UHGV virus genome: UHGV-0080837
DNA length: 29,296 nucleotides
Origin: a virus
Strand: one strand, 5' to 3'
Shown: in pieces, positions 1,192-27,079 of the stretch
Layout of the letters: every line of letters begins with the position of its first letter
How positions within the stretch are numbered: position 1 is the stretch's first letter
Translations under genes and position numbers: made by a program
Notes under the pieces: generated by a model
Databases searched by the model: none
What the model saw: only the letters and a program-made list of their open reading frames with translations
Told to the model about the DNA's origin: nothing

Positions 1192-1264
1192 ATTAAATTT
1201 CTAACACATCTTTTTAGATTAACGCCTTTGCTGTAAAGTACCCTCGCCTATTTAGGAGGGTGCT

Positions 1265-1609
1265 TTGCAGAGTCAAATCACGGAATCAAGACGCTTCAAG
1301 GTGGATGGTTACACCGTAACCTTCGCCGCTGGTGTTAAGAACAGTCATGCTGTCGTTGTGTTCGGCATCATGACCGGGCTTGAGGCCGTCCCTGTGTTTA
1401 CCCTCGAAAAAAACTGGCGAAATCTGGAGGAAGCAGAAAGCTACGTCCGGAAAGTAACCATCATTGCCGCCGAAAAACTCCTGGCCCACTATCAGGAAAA
1501 TTATCGCACTATGGTCGAGAAGATTAATCTCGCTTTCACTCGCCCCACTACCGGCTTTATTGCACCGGATACTAATGCCGGTCGATATCCTGCAAGGGGG
1601 CGTCGGTGA
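1265..1609 (+). CDS. hypothetical protein (cre-adjacent small ORF)
   Basis: 114-aa ORF with TTG start at 1265 preceded by AGGAGG (1253-1258). Its stop overlaps the next start (GTGA at 1606-1609). Confidence 0.5.
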   Translation: MQSQITESRRFKVDGYTVTFAAGVKNSHAVVVFGIMTGLEAVPVFTLEKNWRNLEEAESYVRKVTIIAAEKLLAHYQENYRTMVEKINLAFTRPTTGFIAPDTNAGRYPARGRR

Positions 1610-2082
1610 AAACTTATTACCCATCTCTGAATTGTTACCCGTCTTCCTATCCAGAATTATCCGGGAAGCTGTTAGCTCTATTAGCTAAAGCACCTACGGA
1701 ATGGTTTAAGCCAGTCGTTATCAATCCACACTTCCTGGATTACGGATCTGTTCGCACTCGTAACGAACTCAAAAACCTACTGGCGCATGGATTCATTCGA
1801 CACCGTGCCGGGAAAGGCTATCAGTTAGCGATTGCACCAGAAGAGGCCGTGCGGCTATTCGCATATCGTGACAGCCAGACAAAAGCTCGGGTAATAGCTC
1901 AAATACTTCATAACGGCAGCACCTATGCCCGCCAGTTTGGCGGCGACACGTCGCAGTTCTTGCGGGCGGTGCGATCGCTGGAGGAGCAAGGAGTTATTGA
2001 AAGTTCCTGTCTTCCTGTTCCTACCGTTCCACATATCAAACGTCGGGTTTACACCTTCACGCAGAGAGCTAAAAAACAATGA
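1606..2082 (+). CDS. hypothetical protein
   Basis: 158-aa ORF, GTG start overlapping the upstream stop; its own stop overlaps the dut ATG (ATGA at 2079-2082). No family recognised. Confidence 0.5.
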   Translation: MKTYYPSLNCYPSSYPELSGKLLALLAKAPTEWFKPVVINPHFLDYGSVRTRNELKNLLAHGFIRHRAGKGYQLAIAPEEAVRLFAYRDSQTKARVIAQILHNGSTYARQFGGDTSQFLRAVRSLEEQGVIESSCLPVPTVPHIKRRVYTFTQRAKKQ

Positions 2083-2573
2083 TTTACGTAAAAGTGAAAC
2101 GCCTACATCCGGCAGCAAAACTTCCAGCTTATGCCACCTCCGGATCGGCGGCGATGGATTTTGAGGCTGTTGAAATAAAACCATGCGTCGATAGCAATGG
2201 TGCAATTTCCTCAAGCTGGTGGGTGTATACCGGACTGGCTATGGAGATCCCGCCCGGCTGGTGTCTGAAACTCTATCCGCGATCAGGATTGGGCTGCAAA
2301 AAACATACTCGCCTGGCTAACTGCGTAGGAATTATCGACTCCGATTATCGCGGCGAAATCATGGCAAAACTGATTACTGATCCCGGCGGGGAAGGCGTTT
2401 GTCTCAAGCCTGGAATGGCTGTCATGCAAGGAATTTTTGAGCGTGTTGAACAAGTCTCACTAGTCGAGGTTGAGGAACTCAACGAAACGGAGCGTGGTGC
2501 TGGTGGCTTTGGTAGCACATCGGAAGGCCACTTTGAAATTAAGCGTTCACCGCTTCAGTACGAAAAGTTATAA
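2079..2573 (+). CDS. dut: dUTP diphosphatase (trimeric dUTPase)
   Basis: 164-aa ORF with dUTPase motifs: RSGLG, IIDSDYRGEI, and the C-terminal motif-5-like ERGAGGFGSTS. Confidence 0.85.
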   Translation: MIYVKVKRLHPAAKLPAYATSGSAAMDFEAVEIKPCVDSNGAISSSWWVYTGLAMEIPPGWCLKLYPRSGLGCKKHTRLANCVGIIDSDYRGEIMAKLITDPGGEGVCLKPGMAVMQGIFERVEQVSLVEVEELNETERGAGGFGSTSEGHFEIKRSPLQYEKL

Positions 2574-2587
2574 GCAGAGAAAAGACT

Positions 2588-3265
2588 ATGAATAACAAGG
2601 CAACGAAAGAGCTTTTTAAGCTCCTTCCCAAATACAAAGCTCAAAAAAACGTTAGTGCATCGAAAATCAAAAATGTTGTTATTTTCGGAGTAACTGATAC
2701 CCCACTTTGGGGCAGCATCGAACTCGTTGAACCTAAAGGGGCAACAGTTTGTGTTGACGCAATGTTTTTACAAAAACACCGACCAAAAACTGGCGGGTAT
2801 CTGATCGTTTATGAAAACGGTTATCTGTTCTATGCCCCGGAGAAACCATTTGAGGAACGCTATGGCCTGGTTAACGACGCCTCCAAAAATGGAACCACGG
2901 TCATCATTACGGATGACAACGGCGTGATGATTAATCTTACCGGGAGCGTAACTATTTCTGCTGGTGGCATCACCACCCAGCAAGAAGAAATCGACCTTGA
3001 AGCAGCCGACTTTTCTGACGCGCTGATGTGGCTGAAGGATGGCAAGAAAGTTGCCCGGCGCGGGTGGAACGGCGAAAACCAATTCTGCTGGCTGGTTCCT
3101 GAAGGACAGTACCCGGCACGAATGGAAGCCATTAAGGGATATTTCCCCGGCGATCTCGTTCCGTATGGTGCTTATTTCGCCTTAAAAAATGCACAAGGTG
3201 TAGTTGTTCCGTGGGTGCCTTCTGTAGGCGACTTACTGGCATGTGACTGGTTTGTAGTGGAGTGA
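2588..3265 (+). CDS. two-domain protein: unknown N-terminal domain plus C-terminal DUF2829 (Tad2-like) domain
   Basis: 225-aa ORF. C-terminal ~85 aa (FSDALMWLKDGKKVARRGWNGEN ... WLVPEG ... VVPWVPSVGDLLACDWFVVE) matches the DUF2829 pattern as I recall it; the N-terminal ~140 aa are unassigned. Confidence 0.6.
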   Translation: MNNKATKELFKLLPKYKAQKNVSASKIKNVVIFGVTDTPLWGSIELVEPKGATVCVDAMFLQKHRPKTGGYLIVYENGYLFYAPEKPFEERYGLVNDASKNGTTVIITDDNGVMINLTGSVTISAGGITTQQEEIDLEAADFSDALMWLKDGKKVARRGWNGENQFCWLVPEGQYPARMEAIKGYFPGDLVPYGAYFALKNAQGVVVPWVPSVGDLLACDWFVVE

Positions 3266-3271: not shown

Positions 3272-4039
3272 GTGGAAAATACTAAAGCAATTCAATACCG
3301 CTTGCGTAATGGCCTGCTGGTGGCTGTTAACGCCGACATGTCACTGCCGTTTGACACGATTGAACGTACTATCATGACGTATCTCGGCTTTAATGAAGAG
3401 CTGAATGAAGAGCATGGCGTAGCTATATGGAGTGATGCAGAAAGCGGCGTTCATCGTTACATCACCGCCAGGGGCAAAGACTACTCTCTGGAAGAACTGT
3501 TTACCCTTGCACAGTCTTTCGAATGTGTAGCATTAGACATGTTTAATGATCCTGCTATAGCGCAACGACTTATACGCGAGCTTGGGCTGTCGGTTACACC
3601 AATTATCTTTAAGAATGGCAGCCTGACTGGCACATGGCGCGTAGAACGCATCTCAAACTACCTTCCATATAACCGACAGTTAAATGGAGTAATCTCCGGC
3701 GTTAATCAGCCCGTAGCGTGTGAAAATGTAAACCTGGTTGCCGCTGTTTTGGCAACCGCATGTCGTGTTATCGGTTTGGCTAAACAGGCTTTTATTCATT
3801 TCCCAAATGGTGCAGAAGGTAGCGCAGAGATTATCGCGTGTGATTTCGAATTTACCTGGATGCTACGCGAATATCTGGACCAAACAGTGTTCCGCGCCGA
3901 AGAACTGGATATGTATATCACGTCAACGATTCCTGATGATGTGCGTGCTGAAGCAATCGCTACGGCCAGGGCGAAATGCCGTGCGGCGATTGCAGAACAG
4001 GCCAAAGAAGAAGTTAAGGAAGTGGCAGATGGCGACTAA
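3272..4039 (+). CDS. hypothetical protein
   Basis: 255-aa ORF with GTG start at 3272, acidic C-terminus; same strand and tight spacing with neighbours. Confidence 0.5.
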   Translation: MENTKAIQYRLRNGLLVAVNADMSLPFDTIERTIMTYLGFNEELNEEHGVAIWSDAESGVHRYITARGKDYSLEELFTLAQSFECVALDMFNDPAIAQRLIRELGLSVTPIIFKNGSLTGTWRVERISNYLPYNRQLNGVISGVNQPVACENVNLVAAVLATACRVIGLAKQAFIHFPNGAEGSAEIIACDFEFTWMLREYLDQTVFRAEELDMYITSTIPDDVRAEAIATARAKCRAAIAEQAKEEVKEVADGD

Positions 4040-5123
4040 GAGCAATATTTATAAAGATCCGCGCTGGCTGTCGCTGGTGGAGAAATATAAAGACAATTGG
4101 GTACTGGCAGCAAAAGAATTGTTTGATATTGATTTAAGCCACCAGCAACAACAAATTGTTGAAGCTATACAGCCCAATAATGCAAAAGCTACTGTCACCA
4201 CTCCGTATGGGATCGGACGACCGCAAGTGCTTGCTGTTATTAGTACCCTTTATACGATTATGTATCCTGATTCCCGGACAGTAATTGTTTATCCAAAATC
4301 AAATGTTTGCAAAAGAGGAATTGTTGCATATGTGTGGCAATGTTGGGAGGCATTGCTGAAAAAACAACCTTTTATCATTGAGTATTTTAAGGTCGGTGAT
4401 AGCGGTCTGATGTTCAATGAATTTTGGGGAATGTGCTTTTGTAACTACCGCCTTAACTATGAAGATAGCATTGCAGGTCACTACGCCGACCATCTTTTAT
4501 TCATTATTGTGGATTCCGCACATATCAGCGATCGGGCATACAGCATTGTGTGGGCAAGCATGACTAGTGGTGATTCACGCATATTGCTCACTTCAATTCC
4601 GTCACCAGAGGAAATAGGCTTTTTTTATGATTCACATCATGGACGTGCTTTAGCTGAAGATAATCCGAGTGGTGTATATAAAGCCATTAAGCTGAGTGCG
4701 GAGGATTCACCATTTATTACCCAAGAATATCTTGATCATTTTGCCGAAAGGTATGGCGGGCGAAATAGTGATGACTATCGTCGTATGATTCTTGGTGAGT
4801 TCCCTGGTATTAGGGAGGCTGTTCTTGAATCAGATATGCCGAAGACAATGCGCTTTTCGATGCCTGATGGTAGTGAATGGACAATGCCATTACGAGTGAT
4901 AGCCCGGCATCATGCGCAGCACCACGCCAAAAAACATGGCGTCACGACATTAGAATGGTTGAAATCGCACACTATTCCACTCTTCACTGCAGATCACAAT
5001 GCTATCATTGAGTGGGCAAAAACAATTCCGTGGGAGCATGTCGCTGAATATGCTCACATGCTAAAACCGCCGAAAGACAGGCACGAAATTAGCTGGCTGA
5101 CAGCCGAAAAAATCATTGAATGA
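4029..5123 (+). CDS. hypothetical protein (364 aa from the ATG at 4029)
   Basis: The track ORF 3738..5123 overlaps the previous gene in another frame; the in-frame ATG at 4029 (MATKSNIYKD...) overlaps the upstream stop by 11 nt and is the likely start. Contains a Walker-B-like hydrophobic stretch ending in DS (LLFIIVDSAH), but no P-loop. Confidence 0.5.
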   Translation: MATKSNIYKDPRWLSLVEKYKDNWVLAAKELFDIDLSHQQQQIVEAIQPNNAKATVTTPYGIGRPQVLAVISTLYTIMYPDSRTVIVYPKSNVCKRGIVAYVWQCWEALLKKQPFIIEYFKVGDSGLMFNEFWGMCFCNYRLNYEDSIAGHYADHLLFIIVDSAHISDRAYSIVWASMTSGDSRILLTSIPSPEEIGFFYDSHHGRALAEDNPSGVYKAIKLSAEDSPFITQEYLDHFAERYGGRNSDDYRRMILGEFPGIREAVLESDMPKTMRFSMPDGSEWTMPLRVIARHHAQHHAKKHGVTTLEWLKSHTIPLFTADHNAIIEWAKTIPWEHVAEYAHMLKPPKDRHEISWLTAEKIIE

Positions 5124-5130
5124 TATCAAC

Positions 5131-5164
5131 AAAAAGCCCGCCAGGTCTGGCGGGCTTCTTTATG
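5131..5164. terminator. bidirectional intrinsic terminator between convergent operons
   Basis: Stem GCCCGCCAG (5136-5144), loop GTC, CTGGCGGGC (5148-5156), flanked by AAAAA upstream and TTCTTTAT downstream. Sits between the + stop at 5123 and the - stop at 5169. Confidence 0.65.
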
Positions 5165-5168
5165 CGCC

Positions 5169-5558
5169 TTAAATCACAGGTCTATAATCAAACTCCCCAC
5201 TTCGGGCATCATTAATGACATGAGTGATCACACCAAACACAGCATTACTGCCCGTGCATCCATCGTCATCTACTGGTAACGCCTCTTTCTTCCCGGTGCT
5301 TAAATCCTCCAGGTGCTGGCGCGGATACTTCCTGTATCTCTTTATGCGATATTCACCCTCCATAGCGCATATAAGCAGTGAACCATCAACCGGAGTAAGT
5401 GAGGAATCAACCACCAGCAAAGCACCTTGCAATATTCCCTCACGGTGATGGCTGTCTGCCGCCCGCATGAAGTAGGTCGCGGAAGGATGTCTGATTAGTT
5501 GCTGATCAAGAGAAATGCGGCTCTCTGCATAATCCGCCGCAGGAGAAGGGAAGCCCAT
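5169..5558 (-). CDS. humD: UmuD'-like S24-family protein (P1 HumD-type SOS mutagenesis accessory protein)
   Basis: 129-aa ORF with a LexA/UmuD C-terminal-domain-like core (LLVVDSSLTPVDGSLLI ... EGEYRIKRY). A consensus SOS box lies 19-38 nt upstream of its ATG. Confidence 0.8.
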   Translation of the reverse strand: MGFPSPAADYAESRISLDQQLIRHPSATYFMRAADSHHREGILQGALLVVDSSLTPVDGSLLICAMEGEYRIKRYRKYPRQHLEDLSTGKKEALPVDDDGCTGSNAVFGVITHVINDARSGEFDYRPVI

Positions 5559-5576
5559 AGCGTTTTACCTCAATGA

Positions 5577-5596
5577 TACTGTTTATTCATACAGTA
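5577..5596. promoter_or_regulatory. LexA operator (SOS box) in the humD promoter
   Basis: TACTGTTTATTCATACAGTA at 5577-5596: perfect CTGT-N8-ACAG spacing with an AT-rich centre. Confidence 0.8.
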
Positions 5597-5681
5597 TACA
5601 TTGAAAAGGCATAGTTTGTGAAAGCGGGGTTTGTAGGCGCGCCACGCTGGGGGCTAATCACATTTCTCCCCCATCTTGCCG

Positions 5682-5933
5682 TTATTTTTTTGGTGCATCC
5701 TCGTTCTGATACACCGGATCGCTCCCTTTTGGCAACTGGAGGCTTAACTGCCGGTAGTGCCGTAGCCGTTCCATGAAATAGGCGCGCAGATTCTCTGGTT
5801 GCTCGCGGGCTACCTGTTCAGCTATGACAGGTATGTTCAATCGCTCTTTGTACGCCACACCGCTGGCAGCCAGATCAACGTTAACCTTATCCCGTTCTTC
5901 CTGACTTTTAGCTGCAATATTCCAGTCGCTCAT
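5682..5933 (-). CDS. hypothetical protein
   Basis: 83-aa ORF, tightly spaced after the upstream gene (stop at 5936, start at 5933). Confidence 0.45.
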
Positions 5934-5935
5934 AT

Positions 5936-6208
5936 TTAAGGCTCACATTTCCAGATGGTATTCTGAACACCAGAACCGGGCGCTAGATGAGGGTTAGCGT
6001 TCGCGCTATGCTGATATACTGCTTTAGACTTCCCATATTGCTGACAGGCTTTATCTGCGGTTTTTTGCAGGCTATCCAGGCCATACCAACCATCTGACTG
6101 TATGCTTACCTTTTCACCGTCGTTGTATTGCACCATTGCACACCCAGATATAGCCAGTATCGCGCCGACAATAACGCTTTTCCATAAAACTCTATGCAAC
6201 ATATACAA
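5936..6208 (-). CDS. small lipoprotein, YgdI/YgdR-like (DUF903-like)
   Basis: Signal peptide with lipobox (ILAISGC); mature N-terminus [18 protein letters not shown] resembles the YgdI/YgdR pattern. Confidence 0.45.
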
Positions 6209-6247
6209 AAATCCCCTCTGTGAATTGAGGGGATTTTAGCATGGTGA

Positions 6248-7006
6248 TCAGATATCGGCCTTATTCGGAATTTTATCAGCCACCAGCGGCAATAAAGCCT
6301 TCGCCATTTCATGAACCAACATGGCATCAATGACGCCTAGCGTATGGCCCGGCTTAATCTTTAATGCGGCCTCAAGATAGCCTCTTTCCAGAGTGGTTTT
6401 TACGCTTTTCTTGGGCGATTGTTGGGAACTATCCGGAAAATCCGGATGGTTGCCAGCCTCGTAAGCTACCCGCAGCCAGTGCATGAATGTTTCAGTGGAC
6501 ACACAACCACAGTCCACATCGATTTTCCCGCGTTGCTGTTCCAGCCATTGCCCAAAATCCAACCTGTAAGTCTTACTTTCAAGTTCATCACCATTGAACT
6601 CGACTTTCTGCGACGCTATGAGAGCTGATTCGTATTGTTCGCGAGTGACAACTGACAGGTATTCATCGCTATCAAGGTCACCAATTGGAAGCTCAATCTC
6701 ACAACAAAAATTGCGCCCAAAGAACGTGTCTTTTTTGTGGTCTGAGCCAAAAGCAAAAGTCGCGCATGGCGCCATTAAATTGGCACTGAGCAGGCGACAA
6801 TCGATCATACCATCAGGCCACCCGCCGCACTTAGGCAGCTCCTTCACTAACAAGTCGATAAGCTTCATTTTTTTATCATCTTTGCAAGCCGCCAAAGCCA
6901 TTTGGGCAAGTGCCAATACTTCATCTGCCGTATATCCAGCACCGTGACCATACATTTCGATACGGGCGATAATCTCTGATATGCGTTCTTTAGTGATTCT
7001 TGTCAT
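6248..7006 (-). CDS. hypothetical protein
   Basis: Track ORF 6248..7021; the ATG at 7004-7006 (MTRITKER...) gives an ATGA overlap with the upstream stop and is the likely start. Confidence 0.45.
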   Translation of the reverse strand: MTRITKERISEIIARIEMYGHGAGYTADEVLALAQMALAACKDDKKMKLIDLLVKELPKCGGWPDGMIDCRLLSANLMAPCATFAFGSDHKKDTFFGRNFCCEIELPIGDLDSDEYLSVVTREQYESALIASQKVEFNGDELESKTYRLDFGQWLEQQRGKIDVDCGCVSTETFMHWLRVAYEAGNHPDFPDSSQQSPKKSVKTTLERGYLEAALKIKPGHTLGVIDAMLVHEMAKALLPLVADKIPNKADI

Positions 7007-7377
7007 TTCTTTTTGCGCCATTTCTTTTCACATTCCTTAGTCCATTTTTCAATGTTCATTTTGGCAATATCAGTCATTCCATCACCTAAGAAATACTTTT
7101 TCCGGTATGCCTTGCACTTAAACCACACGACAACAGCCACCAGCCAGAAAATAAAAGGCCATACAGCAATACCAACTACAGCCGCGATAAAGCCCAATAG
7201 CCATAAATGAAGCTCTCCAACTTCTGTTTGCGGCAATATTCTTAAAGAATTAAACAGCAGACTGAACGAATGGTCGTATGCATTGGCGGTATAAGACATG
7301 CAATCCATATAATTAAAGTCATAGCCTGCGGCTGCCGCCCATAATGGGCGGTCAAGAAAATGTTTTAGTGTCATCAT
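7003..7377 (-). CDS. small membrane protein
   Basis: 124-aa ORF with one strongly hydrophobic segment (LWLLGFIAAVVGIAVWPFIFWLVAVVVWF) and a Lys-rich C-terminus. Confidence 0.45.
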   Translation of the reverse strand: MMTLKHFLDRPLWAAAAGYDFNYMDCMSYTANAYDHSFSLLFNSLRILPQTEVGELHLWLLGFIAAVVGIAVWPFIFWLVAVVVWFKCKAYRKKYFLGDGMTDIAKMNIEKWTKECEKKWRKKK

Positions 7378-7383
7378 ATAAAC

Positions 7384-7677
7384 TTAAGGTTCAGACCAGT
7401 TATCTTCAATAGCAATGCTTAATCTTTGTAGCCATTCTGCTAATTTCAGCATTGCTTCTCTTTCGCTTAAACCACGAGGAAAATCATCAAGCGAAATTGT
7501 TGGCTTGAAGCCCCCGTAATTATCCATTTCAACGGTCAGATTTTGCTCCAGCACGGTATTCCTTACGCGGCTATTGTGCCGAAGCAAATATACTGAACGT
7601 GATTTATTGGTTTTGTGGTCGAATGTATATTCGGTAAGTATCATCTGGCTTCCGCCATGATTATTACCTCGCCACAT
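7384..7677 (-). CDS. hypothetical protein
   Basis: 97-aa ORF; GGAG 5 nt upstream of the ATG at 7677. Confidence 0.45.
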   Translation of the reverse strand: MWRGNNHGGSQMILTEYTFDHKTNKSRSVYLLRHNSRVRNTVLEQNLTVEMDNYGGFKPTISLDDFPRGLSEREAMLKLAEWLQRLSIAIEDNWSEP

Positions 7678-7689
7678 AATTACTCCGTG

Positions 7690-8106
7690 TTAATAAGAGA
7701 AATATACCGTTGCAACACTGTTATATTGGTCGAACGAAATAGCATTTACTTCATAGCTGGTGGGCAGCTTCTTACCAAGAATGTAGCCAGGCCATGAGTT
7801 CCACGGAATTTCTGTACGGTCGTCGTCTTGCCACATTACGCAACCAAGAGAGCCAACCATTTCACCATATCGCTTGCCACAAGTAACAAAGCCGATATTC
7901 GGCTTTTCTTGTGTTGCTGATACCATGGTGGTATTGGCAGATGCATTGATTGCAGTACGCCGCGCTTGCTCGCTAGCGATAGAAGCATTTACTGCCGCCG
8001 TGGTCGCTGCTGTTGCCGCCGCTCCAGCGGCAACAACTGACGCGTGGGATAAATGACTGGCTGATAACATAGCCAGAAAAATAATAGCTCTTTGAAATTT
8101 AGCCAT
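7690..8106 (-). CDS. secreted protein with N-terminal signal peptide
   Basis: Within track ORF 7690..8184; the internal ATG at 8106 gives MAKFQRAIIFLAMLSASHLSHA (a typical Sec signal) followed by an Ala/Thr-rich linker. Confidence 0.45.
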   Translation of the reverse strand: MAKFQRAIIFLAMLSASHLSHASVVAAGAAATAATTAAVNASIASEQARRTAINASANTTMVSATQEKPNIGFVTCGKRYGEMVGSLGCVMWQDDDRTEIPWNSWPGYILGKKLPTSYEVNAISFDQYNSVATVYFSY

Positions 8107-8132
8107 TGATTTAACCTTTATTGCGAACATAT

Positions 8133-8354
8133 TTAGCTGTGTGTTGCCGATGTGCGGAGATTCTCTTCTATCAATTCCACGCATTCTGACCGACGAACAA
8201 ATAATTCTTCTCCGTTATGAATTACGACATAGCCGTAAGCGGTTTTACGCATCACATCGAACTCATCCCATACGGAAATACCGCACTCTGCTAACGAGCA
8301 ATCCAAATAATCTTCCGGATGCTTGTCGGTGTTATTAATGATGCGAATCCTCAA
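8133..8354 (-). CDS. hypothetical protein
   Basis: 73-aa ORF in operon context. Confidence 0.4.
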   Translation of the reverse strand: MRIRIINNTDKHPEDYLDCSLAECGISVWDEFDVMRKTAYGYVVIHNGEELFVRRSECVELIEENLRTSATHS

Positions 8355-8391
8355 ATCTTTTCACCTTTGACGGCAAGTTGCAGGTTAGCCA

Positions 8392-8652
8392 TTACCTCAC
8401 CTCCAGTCTCCATACCGCCTGACCAATCCGGCTGGCATGGGTATCTTTGGATACTGTTCCGTCTTTAGCCATCTCCATAAGAATTTTGCGCAAATCTGCC
8501 GAGCGCCATTCTTCATCAGGAAATTCCTTCTCCATTGCCAACCGCAGATTCCAGGTTGCTATCGTGAATGGATATTCCCCGCCGAGAGCTTTCTCTTGCA
8601 GGGCCGCACGGGAACGTATCACCTGCAAAACCTTCTCTTTTACATCCATCAT
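8392..8652 (-). CDS. hypothetical protein
   Basis: Track ORF 8392..8724; the ATGATG at 8647-8652 is preceded by AGGAGG and overlaps the upstream stop (ATGA), so the start is taken at 8652 (MMDVKEK...). Confidence 0.45.
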   Translation of the reverse strand: MMDVKEKVLQVIRSRAALQEKALGGEYPFTIATWNLRLAMEKEFPDEEWRSADLRKILMEMAKDGTVSKDTHASRIGQAVWRLEVR

Positions 8653-9239
8653 TTTGCCTCCTGCGGCGGTTCTGGTAGCGGCATCCAGTGTGATGGTATC
8701 CACGACGCACCAGGTATTACCCACCCATCATTAGCGTCAGGATGCCCCGGGATGTAAGTCGCCCATTTCATTCGCCAGTCACCTTTCCTGTCAAACTCCC
8801 TGGCAACAAGAACGGCTGTTTTGGTATCCGGCATTCGCTCACTACAGCTTATCCAACTATCCGGAATTACCGGATAGTTGCGCATTGCGACCTTTAATGC
8901 CTCATAGAAGCAACCTTTCAGATTGTTGAACTGACGCCCATTTAGCGGGCCGTGTTCAGTCAGCATGTTGTGTAATTTCCATGCCGCGTCGTTTACTTCG
9001 TTGGATGACAGGGGAGGCAACTTGTAAGTTTGGCTTACAGGTTCGGCACCATGAAGCATGGCAGCACGGCAGGCGTTCCAGCCAGCTGTTCGCCCAAGCG
9101 AGTAAACTTCAGATGGCTCAAGATAATCAATGTCATGCCCGTCCTCATCGTCGTTCTCAGGTAATGCAGCAGGTACTACTGGTACTGGAGGGGGCGGCAT
9201 AAACAGGAATAACGTCCGCTTGCTCTTTATTGCTTTCAT
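8649..9239 (-). CDS. DUF551-domain phage protein
   Basis: C-terminal region (WISCSERMPDTKTAVLV ... GWVIPGASWIPSHWMPLP) fits the DUF551 pattern. The start is uncertain (alternative ATG at 9200); the track ORF overlaps the upstream gene by about 80 nt. Confidence 0.5.
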   Translation of the reverse strand: MKAIKSKRTLFLFMPPPPVPVVPAALPENDDEDGHDIDYLEPSEVYSLGRTAGWNACRAAMLHGAEPVSQTYKLPPLSSNEVNDAAWKLHNMLTEHGPLNGRQFNNLKGCFYEALKVAMRNYPVIPDSWISCSERMPDTKTAVLVAREFDRKGDWRMKWATYIPGHPDANDGWVIPGASWIPSHWMPLPEPPQEAK

Positions 9240-9417
9240 CCGTTAAAGCCCAGAATAATTTCCCGGCCGGATGTTTGAAAATATAAGCAACTGGATCTGC
9301 TTCCAGCGATGCCAGTGCAATTTCATAAGCCCGGCGTTCAATATTGTCTCGAACGTCCAGGCTGCTGATACGCTCTTTGATTTCTTTAATCAGTTCTTTG
9401 TCGGTTAAAGTGGTCAT
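9157..9417 (-). CDS. hypothetical protein
   Basis: 86-aa ORF, ATGA-coupled to the upstream gene. Confidence 0.4.
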   Translation of the reverse strand: MTTLTDKELIKEIKERISSLDVRDNIERRAYEIALASLEADPVAYIFKHPAGKLFWALTDESNKEQADVIPVYAAPSSTSSTCCIT

Positions 9418-9623
9418 TTGTTAATCCTCAAAACTTTATGCCCGGGCGCAAAAGCACGTGTTTTGTCTTTGCTTATTCGCCAGCCATCCTTACGTGCCTC
9501 TTTTGCACAGCCAGCCCATGACGTACCGATATATTCACCGAAGTCTGGCACTGGATATACACCTTCCGTACACTGGCGGCAGTCACAATAGAGATGCATG
9601 GTGTAACTTGCGGCAATAGCCAT
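9414..9623 (-). CDS. small Cys-rich protein
   Basis: Start placed at the ATG at 9621-9623 (MAIAASYTMHLYCDCRQC...), preceded by AAGGAG; the track ORF extends to 9695 in an overlapping frame. Confidence 0.4.
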   Translation of the reverse strand: MAIAASYTMHLYCDCRQCTEGVYPVPDFGEYIGTSWAGCAKEARKDGWRISKDKTRAFAPGHKVLRINK

Positions 9624-9624
9624 A

Positions 9625-9813
9625 TCACTCTCCTTTAGTGCGCAAATGGTTTTTCCAGCGGTTTTGCGCCGCGCTGGGCTTTTTGCAAAAACCACAATCC
9701 ATCATCCCGTAATATTTCATCAACCCCATCCGTCGGTTGCTGAGTCTCACCCACTGCCAGACGCCAGGAGCGTTTCTACGAACTAACAGAATCTTTGCTT
9801 TACGGTTTTTCAT
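9625..9813 (-). CDS. small basic protein (MKNRKAK N-terminus), copy 2
   Basis: 62-aa ORF whose ATG overlaps the stop of the upstream paralog (ATGA at 9810-9813). Confidence 0.35.
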   Translation of the reverse strand: MKNRKAKILLVRRNAPGVWQWVRLSNRRMGLMKYYGMMDCGFCKKPSAAQNRWKNHLRTKGE

Positions 9814-9986
9814 CTTACTGCGTACCCTTTCTTCCGCCTGTTCTGTGACGCAGTAGGCTTACGCTTTGCGGCAAAAGCCACCTGACCAAATGGATGGAGT
9901 ACCGCTATCTTATGGTTGCTAATAACCAGCTCCACCACACGCACAGGTCGCTGTAAAAAAAGTCGTTTTGCCTTACGGTTTTTCAT
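9810..9986 (-). CDS. small basic protein (MKNRKAK N-terminus), copy 1
   Basis: 58-aa ORF, below the ORF-track cutoff, translated by hand from the ATG at 9984-9986. Its first 7 codons are near-identical in DNA to the downstream copy. Confidence 0.3.
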   Translation of the reverse strand: MKNRKAKRLFLQRPVRVVELVISNHKIAVLHPFGQVAFAAKRKPTASQNRRKKGYAVR

Positions 9987-12484: not shown

Positions 12485-12527
12485 AATGCATACCGACTCT
12501 GTTTTGTTCCGAGTGGTAAAATAATAT

Positions 12528-12558: not shown

Positions 12559-12581
12559 TTTTGAGTGCGTAAATGATTTGA

Positions 12582-16284: not shown

Positions 16285-16296
16285 TTTTCTAACATT
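16273..16296 (+). promoter_or_regulatory. promoter-like element with operator half-site, start of the immI-like region
   Basis: TTGATA then AATTAGTTTTCTAACAT; the 15-mer TTAGTTTTCTAACAT is shared with the minus-strand promoter at 12528-12546. Confidence 0.4.
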
Positions 16297-16783: not shown

Positions 16784-16888
16784 AATACTGACTGTTGCGC
16801 CCTGACATTATCGTGGGGTATATTTCTACGGCACCTTAGAAAAACGGGTGCCGGGATTGGTCTCCCGGTAATGTCAAAGGCGACACAT

Positions 16889-16916
16889 AGACGCCACAAG
16901 CGTCTTTTTTGTTGTC
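16889..16916 (+). terminator. hairpin plus T-run (attenuator or terminator-like) inside the immI-like leader
   Basis: AGACGC CACAA GCGTCT followed by TTTTTTGTT at 16889-16913. Confidence 0.35.
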
Positions 16917-16924
16917 GGCGCACT

Positions 16925-17010
16925 CGCACACCTATCAATGGTGGGCTGTGTGGTGGCTTCTTCGGAAGCGCCGGTTCCCTTTGACGCCGGTAAGACCAAC
17001 TCCACACAGT
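16925..17010 (+). ncRNA. c4: candidate c4-like antisense RNA (P1 immI type); boundaries approximate
   Basis: Contains CCCTTTGAC (16977-16985) and AGACCAA (16994-17000), antiparallel complements of GTCAAAGG and TTGGTCT, which occur twice downstream/upstream as direct repeats. Also a GCUUC-UUCG-GAAGC tetraloop hairpin (16956-16969). Confidence 0.4.
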
Positions 17011-17074
17011 CCACCGCCAGTAAGATTGGTCTCTTCGGCGGTGGTATCGTTCACTGTCAAAGGAGGCTGCCAAT

Positions 17075-17290
17075 ATGGCTACTATCCCTACCCCAACTCA
17101 TTCTGAATTTATCTGGCGTTTCTATTCCTGCCAAAAACACCTGTATATCTGCGTCATGGCTGCAACCGAAGCAGAAGCTCGTTCATACCTTCCTGAAGAA
17201 CCCTGCATTTTTGCCGCACGCTTCACTCTTGATGCGATGGAGATCCTCAATTACTGGAATCTGCCAATGAACTGCGTGGAGGTGCACTGA
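17075..17290 (+). CDS. icd: Icd-like small protein (host cell division inhibitor family)
   Basis: 71-aa ORF; pattern IWRFYS ... AATEAEARSYLPEEPCIFAARF resembles Icd-like proteins. Its RBS AGGAGG (17061-17066) is part of the b2 antisense target; its stop overlaps the ant ATG (TGATG at 17288-17292). Confidence 0.5.
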   Translation: MATIPTPTHSEFIWRFYSCQKHLYICVMAATEAEARSYLPEEPCIFAARFTLDAMEILNYWNLPMNCVEVH

Positions 17291-18231
17291 TGAATCTGTC
17301 CATCTCTCAAAAAGCGACAATGACCAGTATTGAGATCGCGGAACTGGTAGGTAAGCGTCATGATAATGTGAAGCGTACCATTGAAGTATTAACTAAAGGT
17401 GGTGTCATTCAATTTCCTCAAATTGAGGAAATTGAAAATAAACAATCAGTTGGCCCTCGTCGATTTTCCAAGGCTTACATCTTTGAAGGCGAACAAGGAA
17501 AACGAGACAGCATTATTGTCGTCGCGCAGCTCTCTCCCGAATTCACCGCCCGGCTGGTGGACCGCTGGCGCGAACTGGAGAGTGCCAAAGTACAGTTAAA
17601 ATCAAAAGCCGAAATTCTGGCTGAAATGGCGCAAATGCATCTTGAGCATGAACGCCGGATCAACGCCGTTAATGCCCAGGTAGCCGAAGTATCGGCACAA
17701 GTGTCCAAAGTCGCTGAAACCGTCGAGCAAATAAAGAAAGGCAATATGCCGGAAGGCTACATTGGCTACCGCCAGTTGGCGGCGAAATGTGGCCTGACTG
17801 AAGCCAAATGTCGCAACCTGGTTAACGCTTACCGGATTCCCACCGATACACATGAGTTTTTGACCCCCGATGGCTTGCTTGCGCGACGCTCCATTGTGGC
17901 TCTGGCCCCCTTCCGGAAAGCCTTCAAGCAGGTTATGTCGGAGGCAGAACCACGCAACAAACGCTGGTATCATCCCAAGATGGGGCTGTTTCAGGCAATC
18001 CATCATCCTTTACCGGAAATCCCAAAAGATAATCTGTCACTGCATACCGCCAGAGAGAAGATCAGAAGTGGATATGCAACGGTATGCCGTCGCGCCTCAT
18101 GGTCTGAAGGTGTATGGGTATGGCCCGAAGGCGGATCAAGGAAGCACTGGCGCACTATCCGGGATGGGAAAATCCATGCTATTGATTTAGCGCCAGAGGA
18201 TATGGTTGCTATGGACTGGATTGTTAGTTAA
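17290..18231 (+). CDS. ant: antirepressor (Rha/Ant N-terminal domain) with C-terminal DUF2829-like domain
   Basis: N-terminus TSIEIAELVGKRHDNVKRTIEVL is a typical Rha/Ant-type HTH start. C-terminal ~60 aa (SGYATVCRRASW ... WVWPEGG ... IHAIDLAPEDMVAMDWIVS) parallel the DUF2829 domain at 2588..3265. Confidence 0.6.
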   Translation: MNLSISQKATMTSIEIAELVGKRHDNVKRTIEVLTKGGVIQFPQIEEIENKQSVGPRRFSKAYIFEGEQGKRDSIIVVAQLSPEFTARLVDRWRELESAKVQLKSKAEILAEMAQMHLEHERRINAVNAQVAEVSAQVSKVAETVEQIKKGNMPEGYIGYRQLAAKCGLTEAKCRNLVNAYRIPTDTHEFLTPDGLLARRSIVALAPFRKAFKQVMSEAEPRNKRWYHPKMGLFQAIHHPLPEIPKDNLSLHTAREKIRSGYATVCRRASWSEGVWVWPEGGSRKHWRTIRDGKIHAIDLAPEDMVAMDWIVS

Positions 18232-19143: not shown

Positions 19144-19371
19144 TTTTCAACCTTTCACCACAAATCAAGACTAACAACCCAATAATAATAACTAACCACT
19201 CTGTTTTTTTGATAAGCACCAAATCGTTTACAAAAAAAATAGCAAATGACTATTGACACTATTCTGGAAATCACAAACTGCACATAATCCATCGCGCTAA
19301 CGGCTCCCGTTGAAGGTTCTTTTGACGATTAACTTTCAGCCGAAGCGCGGTAGGGAGTCATAACGCCAAAG

Positions 19372-20078: not shown

Positions 20079-20406
20079 TCACATTAGTAGCTTTGTTAAC
20101 TCCCTCAATACCAGGTAGAAGAGTAACAAAAATATTGACGCCAGTATTTGCGTGGTCAATGAAGCGTTCATAAACAGATCAATTAGCATTAATAATTCGA
20201 ATATAACATCCATGTCATTCACTCCGTTTAATTTTTAATCTAATGCCAGCAAATGAAGCTGGCCCCCGCACAAAGATTAATGAAAGTCACTTGTCACCAG
20301 TGAGGGGATTTATGAACCACATCCCCCTGAACTGGTGGCCTGTCTGTTTCTCACATTTCACACCCTGCATACAGTTTCCCCCAGGTTATGACTGAGAGGC
20401 TTTGTT

Positions 20407-22962: not shown

Positions 22963-23301
22963 TCAGGCTGCTTTTTTATTCAGGTTCCGCTGAGAAATAA
23001 ATTTTTCAGCAGTATTGATACGACTTAACTCTTCCTGAACGCGCATATCATTTTCGACTTCCCACAGATCTACTGCGGTCTGAAGATTAATCCAAAAATC
23101 TACAGAAGTATCGAATGCTTTTGCCAGGCGATATGCCATATCCATCGTTAGCTTACGATTATTATTAACAAGAGCACTTACGGTGTTACGATGAACATGA
23201 AGTATTTCTGCTAACTCGTTGATCTTCAGCTCTAACGGCTCCAGGTATTCGTACAGAAGGATATCACCTACGGTCGTCGGTTTTCTGGTTGCCTGTTTCA
23301 T
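22963..23301 (-). CDS. higA: HigA-family antitoxin (XRE-type HTH)
   Basis: 112-aa ORF with the HigA-type HTH pattern (VGDILLYEYLEPLELKINELAEILHVHRNTVSALVNNNRKLTMDMAYRLAKAFDTSVDFWINLQ), immediately downstream of the toxin gene. Confidence 0.75.
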   Translation of the reverse strand: MKQATRKPTTVGDILLYEYLEPLELKINELAEILHVHRNTVSALVNNNRKLTMDMAYRLAKAFDTSVDFWINLQTAVDLWEVENDMRVQEELSRINTAEKFISQRNLNKKAA

Positions 23302-25392: not shown

Positions 25393-25395
25393 TAA

Positions 25396-26376
25396 GTGGC
25401 CCAGGAGTTACAACAATATTTTCTACAGTCAGTGCTCATTAACGATAACAAAGTGCCACGAGACTGGATTTTTACCGCAGTATATGTAGAAAAAACCAGC
25501 CTCAAAGCCCCTTTGCTAAAACTGGAAATTCATGACGCTACCGGCACCGTAATTGATGACTGGAAAGCAAAATACGGTGCATCGCTGGTGGCTGAAATGG
25601 GCGATCCAAACGGTAATGCAGGCACTTTTAAAACAGATTTCTTTGTTACGTCTGCAATGCTGGCTGGTGATGTTGTTACCGTTATTGCTGTCAGTGAAGA
25701 CGTGCGCAGGTTTAAGATCCCCTCCCCGCGCACAAATTTACATACCAACAAAACACCAGACGCTATATTCAAGGCATATTCCGGCAAGCTTAAAATTACC
25801 AGCAGCGTGCTAAAACGCGCAGTTACATATCATCTGAATGCCGGTGACAAACCGTCAAAAATGCTCTCGCAGATAGCGCGAGACAAAGGTGCATTATGTT
25901 GGGTATGCCGTGGGGAATTTAACTTTTACACCCTGGCTGATCTGATGAAGCAAACGCCATCATTTACCTACGAGGGGAATAACCCTAAAGCAGAATACAC
26001 TTTGTCCAAAATGCGCCTACTCCAACAGGAACATGCGACAACAGCAAAGAATCAATATCGTTTTGTTGGGTATTCCATGACCGATGGCTACGTCGAATAT
26101 GGCGATAGCTCACTCCCAGTGCGTTATATATCCGACTCTGATATGGAAACTCTTCGCAATATGCAGCTGTCTCTCGTCCCCAAAATGGATATAGAAGTCG
26201 CAGGCAATCCGGATATAAAACCGGGAATGGTAATAGAGATTATCGTATACCGCTATGACCAGGAAAACCGCATTGATGAATCAATGCCCCGCAAGCTGAT
26301 AGTAAAAAATGTTGCGCACTTTGAAGACCGCGTAGGCTACACAACACGAATGATATTAGGAGTGCCGAACAAATGA
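25396..26376 (+). CDS. putative baseplate hub-type protein (gpD/gp44-like)
   Basis: 326 aa. Assignment rests on position directly upstream of, and overlapping, the spike-like gene; sequence resemblance is weak. Confidence 0.35.
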   Translation: MAQELQQYFLQSVLINDNKVPRDWIFTAVYVEKTSLKAPLLKLEIHDATGTVIDDWKAKYGASLVAEMGDPNGNAGTFKTDFFVTSAMLAGDVVTVIAVSEDVRRFKIPSPRTNLHTNKTPDAIFKAYSGKLKITSSVLKRAVTYHLNAGDKPSKMLSQIARDKGALCWVCRGEFNFYTLADLMKQTPSFTYEGNNPKAEYTLSKMRLLQQEHATTAKNQYRFVGYSMTDGYVEYGDSSLPVRYISDSDMETLRNMQLSLVPKMDIEVAGNPDIKPGMVIEIIVYRYDQENRIDESMPRKLIVKNVAHFEDRVGYTTRMILGVPNK

Positions 26377-27026
26377 AGCGTAGAGCGCAAATTGTTGGAA
26401 CTGTGCACCCGGCAGGGCTTATGCGTGCTCAGGTCCGTGTTTTACCAGACTGGAATGGCGTTCCTGATGACGATCTACCCTGGGCAGAATACCTGTTACC
26501 CATAGGTAACGCGTTTGTACCTACAGTAAAAGGCGACCTGGTATGGGTAGAGTTTCCTTATCTGGATGTTAATGGTCGAATTGATACCAGACGCCCAATG
26601 ATAGTTGGCGCAGCTCAGGATGCGCCTGGCGGAGTACCAAACGTCGCGCCGGAGGCGTCAGGCAATGGTAGCGGCTGGACGCCACCAGAAGTAGACGGAG
26701 CGCCTCCCCGCCCGCAATTTTCGGCGACAAAAGATTTCGTGATTCACCGCAACAATGTGCTCGAAGTGCGAACGGCTGGCGGTGGATATGAAATAGCGAA
26801 TACGGCAGCAGGCTCAAGGATTGGAATGAATGAATCAGGGCAGATATACATCATTGGTCCGGCTGATGTAGTAGTGAATGCGGGAGGGAGTGTTAACGTC
26901 AAATCAGCCGATAACATCAGCGTTAATGGCAAAAACATTACTGTGACAGCCGACGAAAATATTGATTTCAAGGCTGGAGGCACCTTCCAGGCTATCGCAA
27001 GCAACTTTGATTTCAAGAAGGGATAG
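26373..27026 (+). CDS. putative baseplate spike protein (gpV/gp45-like)
   Basis: N-terminus MKRRAQIVGTVHPAGLMRAQVRVLPDW ... LPWAEYLLP ... GDLVWVEF fits the OB-fold start of P2 gpV / Mu gp45-type spikes; Gly-rich repetitive C-terminus. Confidence 0.45.
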   Translation: MKRRAQIVGTVHPAGLMRAQVRVLPDWNGVPDDDLPWAEYLLPIGNAFVPTVKGDLVWVEFPYLDVNGRIDTRRPMIVGAAQDAPGGVPNVAPEASGNGSGWTPPEVDGAPPRPQFSATKDFVIHRNNVLEVRTAGGGYEIANTAAGSRIGMNESGQIYIIGPADVVVNAGGSVNVKSADNISVNGKNITVTADENIDFKAGGTFQAIASNFDFKKG

Positions 27027-27035
27027 AAAACACAT

Positions 27036-27079
27036 CCAATTGTGTTAGATAATTGAATAGAATTTTCTAACACAATTGG
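27036..27079. promoter_or_regulatory. perfect 14-bp inverted repeat operator overlapping the rdgC promoter
   Basis: CCAATTGTGTTAGA (27036-27049) and TCTAACACAATTGG (27066-27079) flank a 16-bp spacer containing TTGAAT; ends 6 nt before the rdgC ATG. Confidence 0.55.

Follow-up and report, generated by a model that had tools for sequence, protein, structure and literature searches.

The window, by which we mean the whole stretch of 29,296 nucleotides that was analysed, belongs to a D6-like phage-plasmid, a distant relative of phage P1: it is 94.6% identical to phage D6 over 62% of its first 20 kb, and E. coli plasmids match it at up to 97% identity. Phage D6 itself was reportedly treated by Sauer and McDermott in 2004 and by Gilcrease and Casjens in 2018. 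The window contains eight copies of an asymmetric motif of ∼20 bp, with the consensus AWTGTGTTAGAAAAYTAAWWT, at five intergenic places. All five are also present in D6 (at 89943, 80704/80720, 76612/76628, 75975 and 64111/64127), for which neither GenBank record carries an operator annotation. The sites and the genes around them are as follows.

163-1191, plus strand: dre, a gene for a Cre-like tyrosine recombinase (D6 annotation), a landmark for c1 and rox, which lie to its left in D6.
1188-1211, minus strand: site 1, a single operator-like site reading AGATGTGTTAGAAATTTAATTTAC, core TCTAAC at 1200-1205, matrix score 28.1 bits, with dre on one side and an orf117-like operon (1265 onward) on the other.
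12522-12561: site 2, paired, left half 12522-12545 (plus strand, 29.1 bits) and right half 12538-12561 (minus strand, 28.2 bits), between a pdcB-like gene (11489-12484, minus strand) and ppp (12582-13304, minus strand).
15623-15662: site 3, paired, left half 15623-15646 (plus strand, 28.9 bits) and right half 15639-15662 (minus strand, 21.5 bits), in the divergent region between the leftward ppp-side operon (ending at 15545) and ref (from 15706).
15706-16284, plus strand: ref homologue and presumed target gene, 55% identical to P1 Ref by tblastn (E = 5e-49).
16276-16299, minus strand: site 4, single, at the 3' end of ref and heading the immI-like region, core TCTAAC at 16288-16293, 27.3 bits.
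16831-18231, plus strand: immI-like module downstream of site 4 (Rfam, tblastn and D6 annotation), with isrK RNA (16831-16910), C4 antisense RNA (16934-17021), icd (17075-17290) and an antirepressor gene (17290-18231).
27038-27077: site 5, paired (27.0 and 28.3 bits), upstream of an hrdC/rdgC-like gene and methyltransferase genes.
27086-27991, plus strand: the hrdC/rdgC-like gene, presumed target of site 5 (tblastn with P1 HrdC: 51% identity, E = 9e-91).

The RNAs of the immI-like module match Rfam RF01394 (60 bits) and RF01695 (75 bits), both above the gathering scores, and its Icd is 63% identical to that of P1.

An earlier note had described TGTTAGA/TCTAACA as a recurrent motif at five promoter regions and had read it as the operator set of a C1-type repressor. 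An exact-match search of the window recovered every occurrence named there. The full heptamer is found at 1200-1206 (minus), 12527-12533 (plus), 15628-15634 (plus), 16288-16294 (minus), 27043-27049 (plus) and 27066-27072 (minus), and the second halves at 12550 (TCTAACG) and 15651 (TCTAACC) share only the hexamer core. Neither word is enriched in the window as a whole: the heptamer occurs 6 times against 3.28 expected, a count reached in 13 of 100 shuffles, and GTTAGA 10 times against about 14.5 expected. A compositional effect, in which A/T-rich intergenic DNA repeats a short word by chance, would agree with the heptamer count taken alone (6 versus 3.3). The placement of the hexamer argues otherwise: intergenic DNA makes up 11.8% of the window but has 8 of the 10 copies (binomial p = 1.4e-6), and these eight have a common flanking consensus of about 20 bp. 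The earlier note had asked about a similar frequency inside genes; only two of the ten copies (13912 and 23231) are in coding sequence, both outside the flanking consensus. Its claim that every site is intergenic holds for all eight cores, and only the A/T arm of the site at 16288 reaches into ref, over its last codons and stop codon. The 15-mer TTAGTTTTCTAACAT, which it had found shared between two sites, is present at 16281-16295, and its reverse-strand copy lies at 12526-12540, one base away from where it had been placed.

A matrix trained only on the eight window sites was applied to the non-homologous D6 positions 1-71000. It returned nine sites of at least 20 bits, all intergenic, where simulations expect 0.00. 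Sites precede c1 and lpa, flank repL on both sides and surround pmgS; the region upstream of the major capsid gene, between that gene and orf52, also has the motif. D6 carries 15-17 motif sites at 12 places, every one of them intergenic, and across its whole genome TGTTAGAA is the 8-mer most enriched in intergenic DNA (11 intergenic copies, 1 coding, p = 7e-11).

The geometry of the pairs is fixed. All three dyads in the window are exactly GTTAGA-N16-TCTAAC, and among relatives we counted 26 unique inverted pairs with N16 against at most 4 for any other spacing from 4 to 30. The palindrome reported earlier at 27036-27079 is a perfect 14-bp inverted repeat, but not a contiguous one, its arms (27036-27049 and 27066-27079; CCAATTGTGTTAGA and TCTAACACAATTGG) standing 16 bp apart. 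In D6 and in L003, a relative, the arms and the length of the N16 are kept at this site and the spacer has a different sequence, an instance of a general pattern in which dyad arms and spacer length persist while spacer sequences diverge. Two of the window sites are single, D6 has at least 8 sites with no second half at the N16 offset (three single sites were inspected), and single sites are found in both orientations relative to transcription.

Conservation follows the cores. Site 1 keeps its core in place in 13 unique variants with varying flanks, some of them from elements with a C1 at 72-81% identity to the query. Among the 11 D6-type Ref-anchored relatives scanned, site 2 is always present in its left half, and in its right half in all but one (L046), and site 4 is identical throughout. 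In 17 unique variants of site 3 the left core is unchanged and the right one differs once (TCTAAC to TCTAAT), and these near-invariant cores adjoin a 7-column hypervariable patch. Outside the window, D6 and all relatives examined have one copy of the motif 10-33 bp before the start codon of c1, a putative autoregulatory operator. The site TTTTATGTTAGAAAACTAAATCGA, 33 bp from that codon, is invariant in D6, L003 and 10 of 10 IMG/VR relatives scanned. Even at 45-52% C1 identity to the query, elements still keep TGTTAGAAAA between genes: behind the recombinase gene, in two copies before c1, and before lpa. We consider a chance origin, practically devoid of probability, to be refuted by the placement, the common flank, the nine out-of-sample matches versus 0 expected, the fixed N16 geometry and conservation down to 45% C1 identity.

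Candidate sigma-70 promoters accompany most of the sites. At site 2 a leftward candidate (TTGATT-17-TATTTT, 12546 to 12518) overlaps the left half. Site 3 has two back-to-back candidates, rightward to ref (TTGAAT-17-AATCAT, 15644-15672, plus strand) and leftward (TTGATT-16-TAATAT, 15641 to 15614, minus strand), with a half-site core in the spacer of each. Site 4 overlaps TTGAAT-16-TAACAT (16268-16295, plus strand), the next candidate being TTGAAT-17-TACATT (16302-16330), and at site 5 we found TAGAAA-18-GATAAT (27024-27053). These candidates should be interpreted with some caution since they are weak, with 8-9 of 12 matches, and a stricter promoter scan returned none at any of the sites. After dre, at site 1, no convincing sigma-70 promoter was found. 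Consequently, the description of five promoter regions is only partly borne out: there are five intergenic places, one of them with no clear promoter. Likewise, the overlap with -35-like hexamers (TTGATT, TTGAAT) applies to four of the five places, and the full promoter matches there are weak.

The overlap of A/T-rich sites with -35-like or -10-like hexamers, among them a -10-like TAACAT within TCTAACAT, could also mean that the motif is itself a promoter element (a -10- or UP-like signature of early promoters) or an activator site rather than a repressor operator. We find this very unlikely. Single sites are co-directional with transcription at c1 and pmgS but opposed to it at lpa, repL and sites 1 and 4, and the distance from core to candidate -35 varies from 1 nt at site 3 to 7 nt at site 2. 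Moreover, the late promoters of P1 have a box of another sequence, ACAAGTGACT, which is separately present at 20285-20294, and one copy of the motif studied here stands directly before the repressor gene.

That gene encodes a distant homologue of the P1 C1 repressor, and D6 and all relatives examined have one; the motif co-occurs with a D6-type c1. In D6, c1 and rox lie just left of dre, c1 directly upstream of the stretch that matches the window start. The alignment to D6 begins at window position 44; the first 43 bases are unrelated to D6 and found no match in any of the sequences searched. Since the window has no c1 and synteny with the c1 region ends at position 43/44, the molecule that carries this window may be without an adjacent c1. 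The C1 of D6 and L003 is 21% identical to P1 C1 over 240 aa (E = 2e-8). As in P1 and P7, the D6-type repressor belongs to phrog_1678 (E = 5e-159 for D6; 3e-140 for P1 C1) and to Pfam PF27008 (Phage_P7_repressor_C1), found on all D6-type homologues in precomputed annotation. Against the NCBIfam equivalog NF041318 (phage_rep_C1, cut-off 500 bits), P1 C1 scores 607.5 bits and D6-type C1 23.1, below the cut-off. With this score and 21% identity, the behaviour of P1 C1 is not simply transferable.

P1 C1 represses through 22 dispersed, asymmetric 17-bp operators (PMC8546580), and the genes it controls include ref, ssb, dmt, kilA and ban (PMC4713147). In the P1 GenBank record C1 operators are annotated at both ends of ref (upstream and at its 3' end), upstream of c4, kilA-repL, uhr-hrdC-dmt, lpa and c1, after repL, and at pmgR. 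The D6-type sites occupy equivalent neighbourhoods: ref 5' and 3', hrdC-dmt, c4-icd-ant, lpa, repL 5' and 3', pmgR/S and c1. Site 3 corresponds in position to P1 Oref and site 5 to Odmt (upstream of uhr-hrdC-dmt). Site 4 takes the place of Omat relative to ref and functionally resembles Oc4; each of the two c4-icd-ant regions is headed by such a site, one by that at the ref 3' end and the other by that downstream of D6 repL, a role that Oc4 has in P1. Both systems have single and paired sites, about 15-17 in the D6 type, dispersed over a plasmid prophage of roughly 90 kb, with asymmetric sequences, single sites in either orientation, overlap with sigma-70 promoter elements and an antirepressor module under C4 RNA control.

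The operator sequences themselves differ, as the earlier note had supposed: the P1 17-bp consensus ATTGCTCTAATAAATTT has no match in the window within 3 mismatches. A by-eye ungapped alignment gives 11 of 17 positions equal between the P1 and D6 consensus sequences (ATTG..TA..AAATT being common), but the core is TGTTAGA in the D6 type and CTCTAAT in P1, with no cross-matches in either direction. The D6 matrix finds 15 matches in D6, 8 in the window and 0 in P1, whereas the P1 matrix finds 21 in P1 and 0 in both D6 and the window. In L058, a P1-type relative (Ref identity 48%), the same positions have operators of the P1 type, one of them upstream of ref, and the D6 motif was not found. In the sequences compared, the putative operator type follows the type of C1, and the P1 and D6 sets are mutually exclusive.

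The recognisable site is also longer in the D6 type (about 20 bp) than in P1. The bivalent P1 operators Obanab and Oc1ab span 28 bp, as inverted 17-mers overlapping by 6 bp. Paired cores are 16 bp apart in the D6 type and 6 bp apart in P1; as a consequence the D6-type sites abut instead of overlapping, and their centres lie about one helical turn further apart. The D6-type repressor is 345 aa long against 283 aa in P1, the roughly 60 extra residues being C-terminal. Tblastn with P1 proteins (E ≤ 0.01) found no homologues of the co-repressor Lxc or of the antirepressor Coi in D6 or the window, and P1 Ant1 gave no match, the antirepressor family being different. A D6-like plasmid has been reported without Lxc (PMC6799933).

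Two lines of evidence could favor another regulator encoded by the element, either a Cro- or Coi-like lytic regulator or a small HTH protein such as the HigA-type antitoxin at 22963-23301. First, the link between C1 and the sites is drawn from sequence, and the element encodes further DNA-binding proteins. Secondly, inverted pairs would suit a conventional dimeric HTH protein. We nevertheless hold such a binder to be unlikely. Every locus examined ties the motif to c1. In the D6-like loci scanned, with C1 at 72-100% identity to the query, it stands 10-33 bp before c1, and three relatives at 45-52% have it in their c1-upstream region. It occupies the same places as the experimentally defined C1 operators of P1. 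Single asymmetric sites, moreover, outnumber the places with inverted pairs in D6, as is the habit of C1. As for the antitoxin, D6 and the closest plasmid have different toxin-antitoxin modules, and antitoxins normally regulate only their own promoter.

Our results favor the hypothesis that the eight sites are operators of the D6-type C1, the probable master repressor of the prophage in this group of phage-plasmids, and we put its probability at roughly 0.85. The C1-regulon reading of the earlier note is supported by the c1-upstream site, the P1-equivalent positions, the mutually exclusive motif sets, the case of L058 and the persistence of the motif at 45% C1 identity. One C1 molecule would recognise one asymmetric site of ∼20 bp, in which the invariant GTTAGA core is preceded by a preferred TGT and followed by the A/T-rich arm AAAAYTAAWWT. 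Part of the signal in this arm may come from promoter function or DNA bending and not from contacts with the protein. A single site would then hold one C1 molecule, a monomer per half-site, and at three places two sites would be set arm-to-arm with the fixed 16-bp gap between cores. The -35 hexamers appear to fall in this gap and each core in a promoter spacer or -10 region, so that bound C1 would exclude RNA polymerase from early lytic promoters. Those repressed would be the dut operon, the pdcB-side and ppp-side operons, ref, the isrK-c4-icd-ant immunity I module, and hrdC with the methyltransferases. Repression would be lifted by the antirepressor, whose gene lies downstream of site 4 and is presumably held in check by the C4 antisense RNA, as in P1.

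Occlusion of early promoters by an autoregulated prophage repressor would recall CI and Cro of lambda. In lambda, the operators are symmetric and form clusters at two loci, where an HTH protein binds as a dimer, whereas D6-type sites are asymmetric and genome-wide, and no HTH family match was found in the D6-type C1. The modelled D6-type C1 may resemble Tus, and only Tus, the replication terminator protein of E. coli, which arrests replication forks on asymmetric Ter sites. Pfam gave no match to PF05472 (Ter) at E ≤ 10. Hhalign gave no convincing sequence homology, with a probability of 0.2-0.3% for a narrow profile and of 9% (pairwise E = 0.0037) for a 61-sequence C1 profile. The similarity of TerB to the operators is not above chance, and nothing suggests a fork-arrest role for the D6-type C1 sites.

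In conclusion, the comparison of sequences supports the view that this motif set belongs to the known C1 operator regulon as a heteroimmune member. Dispersed operators are expected in such phages; those described here have their own core sequence and their own spacing.

The window belongs to the D6 group of P1-like phage-plasmids, as judged by megablast. Identity to Escherichia phage D6 was 94.6% over 62% of the first 20 kb, and ∼90 kb plasmids of E. coli, Shigella and Salmonella reached up to 97% over 75-88% of the same 20 kb; the final 9.3 kb was 99.5% identical to plasmid CP057742.1. Genes and motif sites are arranged as follows.

Gene order and TGTTAGA sites in the window
163-1191, dre, encoding a Cre-like recombinase, first in the gene order
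1188-1211 (-), site 1, single half-site
after dre, a dut-containing operon
∼15545 down to ∼5169, long leftward block including ppp and a pdcB-like gene
12522-12561, site 2, inverted half-site pair
15623-15662, site 3, inverted half-site pair
15706-16284, ref
16276-16299 (-), site 4, single half-site
16831-18231, isrK RNA, C4 RNA, icd and antirepressor
next, mat, then tail and baseplate genes with a HigBA-type module
27038-27077, site 5, inverted half-site pair
27086-27991, hrdC/rdgC-like gene, methyltransferase genes next

Rfam models place an isrK-like RNA (16831-16910, 60 bits) directly 5' of a C4 antisense RNA (16934-17021, 75 bits); D6 carries a second c4-icd-ant region at another place. 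An inverted repeat, CCCTC at 1241-1245 and GAGGG at 1256-1260, would mask the GGAGGG ribosome-binding site of an orf117-like gene with a TTG start at 1265, and is kept in 13 of 13 aligned variants.

An earlier note had read the TGTTAGA/TCTAACA motif as the operator set of a C1-type repressor, and all occurrences it gave were found in the window sequence. The “14-bp palindrome” described at site 5 is indeed a perfect 14-bp inverted repeat, but its arms are separated by a 16-bp spacer, and the shared 15-mer is real, except that its second copy lies at 12526-12540 instead of 12527-12541. The bare 7-mer is not significantly enriched (6 copies against 3.3 expected, a number reached in 13 of 100 shuffles), and its exact count was for that reason dropped as sole evidence; nor is the 6-mer GTTAGA over-represented, with 10 copies against ∼14.5 expected. 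The proposed intergenic placement holds: eight of the ten GTTAGA copies fall in the intergenic 11.8% of the window (p = 1.4e-6). These eight have ∼20 bp of flank in common, which the two coding copies do not share. Inverted pairs occur at three of the five places, in every case exactly as GTTAGA-N16-TCTAAC, where N16 is the 16-bp spacer. When oriented on the core, 21 non-redundant sites of the window and D6 give the consensus AWTGTGTTAGAAAAYTAAWWT, in which GTTAGA is almost invariant.

Three tests that are independent of the site choice in the earlier note exclude chance as the source of this pattern. First, a position weight matrix trained on the eight window sites alone was scanned over the whole D6 genome. 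The 71 kb of D6 without a counterpart in the window yielded 9 sites of at least 20 bits and 10 of at least 17 bits, compared with 0.00 and 0.11 expected from 100 first-order Markov simulations, and all of these out-of-sample sites were intergenic. Secondly, when all 8-mers were compared, the one most enriched in intergenic D6 DNA was TGTTAGAA (11 intergenic versus 1 coding, p = 7e-11), followed by GTTAGAAA. Thirdly, the D6-type DNA collected contained 26 unique inverted half-site pairs with a 16-bp spacer and at most 4 with any other spacer of 4-30 bp. The dyad centers did not fit an IHF-like site in a by-eye comparison with WATCAANNNNTTR, and a degenerate second half-site was absent at the N16 offset of three single sites inspected by eye (1-4 of 6 matches). 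Other 8-mers enriched in D6 intergenic DNA were AAATCACA (12 intergenic versus 5 coding) and the group TGAGGGCA/GCCCTCAA/GAGGGCAA (6-7 versus 1-3); these may represent iterons or repeats bound by some other protein.

The C1 operators of P1 that have been defined by experiment are annotated in GenBank record AF234172, and this annotation agrees with the D6 scan in that most D6-type sites have a P1 operator as their counterpart by position.

D6-type sites and P1 C1 operators (AF234172)
c1: D6 site 10-33 bp upstream of the start codon; P1 Oc1a-e, upstream of c1
lpa: D6 site upstream; P1 Olpa, upstream
repL, upstream: D6 site; P1 OrepL, upstream of kilA-repL
repL, just downstream: D6 site heading the second c4-icd-ant region; P1 Orlf, just after repL
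pmgS: D6 sites flanking the gene on both sides; P1 OpmgRa/b and OpmgT, around pmgR/pmgS
orf52/major capsid gene: intergenic D6 site, upstream of the latter
hrdC: D6 site upstream (window site 5); P1 Odmt, upstream of uhr-hrdC-dmt
ref, 3' end: D6 site (window site 4); P1 Omat
ref, upstream: D6 site (window site 3); P1 Oref
ppp/pdcB: D6 site between the genes (window site 2)
dre: D6 site after the gene (window site 1)
c4: P1 Oc4, upstream

The distance from site 4 to c4 is ∼650 bp in the window, including small ORFs, compared with ∼200 bp in P1. Neither D6 GenBank record carries an operator annotation, and full-text literature searches on the motif and on D6 operators returned nothing relevant; an earlier printed description may exist. 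Binding of the motif by another regulator instead of C1 is disfavored, since the motif is invariably tied to c1 and the sites coincide in position with the P1 operators.

The consensus that we derived from the annotated P1 operators, ATTGCTCTAATAAATTT, is the known C1 operator consensus (PMC8546580). In an ungapped alignment made by eye, the D6-type site, ATTGTGTTAGAAAATTN, agrees with the P1 operator at 11 of 17 positions. Both start with ATTG and have a central TA and an AAATT arm, whereas the core is CTCTAAT in P1 and TGTTAGA in the D6 type. The P1 matrix gave 21 matches in P1 and 0 in D6 and the window; the D6 matrix gave 15 in D6, 8 in the window and 0 in P1. The difference from the P1 consensus that had been suggested was thus borne out by the lack of cross-matches between the two sets, and P1-type operators sought in the window were not found. 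D6-type sites share with P1 operators their asymmetry, their occurrence as single sites and their use of both orientations with respect to the downstream gene. The pairs differ in geometry: the bivalent P1 operators Obanab and Oc1ab consist of two 17-mers with a 6-bp overlap (28 bp in total), whereas in D6-type dyads the two sites abut, with cores 16 bp apart instead of 6 and centers about one helical turn further apart. Homologues of the P1 accessory proteins Lxc (co-repressor) and Coi (antirepressor) were not detectable in D6 or the window, the absence of Lxc having likewise been noted in PMC6799933, and P1 Ant1 has no counterpart in either. The fixed N16 and the absence of Lxc and Coi point to a different stabilization of repression.

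Among IMG/VR loci whose C1 is 72-100% identical to our query, the C1 of the D6-type plasmid L003, the c1-proximal site is unchanged and the post-dre site keeps its core with variable flanks. Sites 2, 3 and 4 are kept in the 11 scanned D6-type Ref-anchored loci, except that the scan missed the weaker right half of site 2 in one of them, L046. Alignment of 17 unique ref upstream sequences showed no change in the left core and a one-base change in the right core of one variant. Adjoining this near-invariant right core are seven consecutive hypervariable columns (15657-15663), with at least 8 versions among 17 variants that are otherwise ∼95% identical. At site 5 the window, D6 and L003 share the arms and the 16-bp spacer length and differ in spacer sequence. 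TGTTAGAAAA is retained even in three far more distant elements, whose C1 shares 45-52% identity with the query: intergenic copies follow the recombinase gene and precede lpa, and two lie upstream of c1. The 90-kb IMG/VR contig L058 (3300048927_000308) has a Ref 48% identical to that of the window, no D6-type sites, and five P1-type C1 operators (1-3 mismatches) at 3771-9893, one of them just upstream of ref; it is a P1-immunity element that has diverged from P1 in other respects. Operator type thus tracks repressor type at the same positions.

D6 gene 1 encodes a protein of 345 aa, annotated as similar to P1 C1, with which it shares 21% identity over 240 residues (pairwise E = 2e-8) and beyond which it has ∼60 more C-terminal residues. 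PHROG family phrog_1678 includes both proteins (E = 5e-159 for D6-type C1, 3e-140 for P1 C1), and the precomputed Pfam assignment of all D6-type homologues is PF27008, Phage_P7_repressor_C1; our local Pfam search returned no family for either C1. The NCBIfam equivalog model of P1 C1 scores D6-type C1 at 23 bits, below its 500-bit cut-off, which makes the latter a distant family member. The family is small (107 clusters at the 50% identity level in a set of 1.84 billion proteins) and falls into two length classes, a D6-type of ∼345-380 aa that has a helical extension at the C-terminus and a P1-type of ∼250-290 aa. A C1-based search for related loci among genome contigs found none.

The window itself lacks c1. 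Its first 43 nucleotides, CGGCGAGAAGGGCGATGACCTCAACCAGCTCCGCGACAAGGCA, are G+C rich with one frame open and had no match in D6, 105 D6-like plasmids, E. coli complete genomes, GTDB genomes or IMG/VR. The alignment of all relatives begins at 44; left of the equivalent point in D6, rox lies within ∼35 bp and is followed by c1. The 43/44 boundary resembles a junction created by rearrangement, by cointegrate formation or during assembly. Since c1 lies outside the window and 1-43 is unrelated to D6, the repressor gene of the UHGV-0080837 molecule is presumed from relatives only.

The sites had also been assigned to five promoter regions. Under a lenient threshold (at least 4 matches out of 6 per hexamer, i.e. 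at least 8 of 12) candidates appeared at sites 2-5, all weak matches, but none at site 1, where there is no more than a conserved TTTAGA...TGTAAAGT pair with variable spacer; a strict sigma-70 scan of 12400-16500 found no promoter at the sites. The site 2 candidate is TTGATT-17-TATTTT, leftward. Site 3 has back-to-back candidates, TTGAAT-17-AATCAT towards ref and TTGATT-16-TAATAT leftward, so placed that the 16-bp gap is taken up by the two -35 hexamers and one core falls within each promoter spacer. At site 4, TTGAAT-16-TAACAT overlaps the core and has a second, operator-free candidate after it, a pair reminiscent of P1 P2c4/P1c4, and at site 5 TAGAAA-18-GATAAT overlaps the left half. Most likely, C1 bound to the cores would occlude these promoters, as shown for P1. 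Repression would be relieved by the antirepressor encoded downstream of site 4, which in turn would be held back by the C4 RNA. That the motif is instead a promoter element is disfavored: site orientations are mixed, the distance to the -35 varies, and the P1-type late-promoter box is a distinct motif. For the latter reason a late-promoter motif was ruled out. The P1 late-promoter (Lpa) box, ACAAGTGACT, has an exact copy at 20285-20294 (-), between mat and gene 26, and a 2-mismatch copy at 19242-19251 (+), upstream of mat, which suggests retention of late promoters of the P1 type.

An AlphaFold2 model of D6-type C1 (P0001; 10-sequence alignment, mean pLDDT 84, pTM 0.54) offers a lead, not a finding, on how such sites might be read. 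Foldseek matched it significantly to only four solved structures, each of them a Tus-DNA complex (E = 3.5e-7 to 1e-5, probability 1.00, ∼305 aligned columns, TM ∼0.4). Monomeric Tus binds Ter, an asymmetric site of ∼21 bp. The distance from TerB to the start codon of tus, downstream of it, is 11 bp, a position that resembles that of the c1 operator. Evidence for homology at the sequence level was weak: hhalign gave a probability of 0.2-0.3% with a narrow profile and 9% at best with a 61-sequence C1 profile (pairwise E = 0.0037; C1 87-192 versus Tus 147-264). The resemblance of TerB to the c1 operator DNA did not exceed chance, its score being matched by 2305 of 5000 shuffles. A BFVD fold search gave no significant match, not even to P1 C1, and a full-text search for a C1-Tus link returned nothing relevant. 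That the C1 family (P1, P7, D6 and ∼100 other clusters) consists of Tus-fold monomeric clamps on asymmetric ∼20 bp sites, with ancestry in common with Tus, is a tentative proposal from the model, and we would sooner bet against it than for it. The extra C-terminal helical hairpin of the D6 branch would then pair two clamps across N16 dyads and replace the missing Lxc. If true, this would explain a long-known oddity, the asymmetry of C1 operators and their lack of an HTH-type reader, and would suggest a plasmid-prophage repressor as the source from which Tus-Ter was domesticated, or the opposite; if confirmed, it would link prophage immunity to replication-fork arrest proteins.

In conclusion, the linkage of the motif to c1, the P1-equivalent positions and the type exclusivity support the reading of a C1-type repressor regulon. 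On this sequence evidence the motif set appears to belong to the known regulon of dispersed C1 operators as a new, heteroimmune member, set apart by a core of its own and by wider dyads. For the phage-plasmids of the D6 group, which are common in E. coli, Salmonella and Shigella (>100 PLSDB plasmids match), it provides a concrete operator map that can be tested. Moreover, it defines a second C1/operator specificity without cross-reaction, which could account for heteroimmunity with P1 and could serve as an orthogonal repressor-operator pair beside the Dre/rox tool of the same phage.
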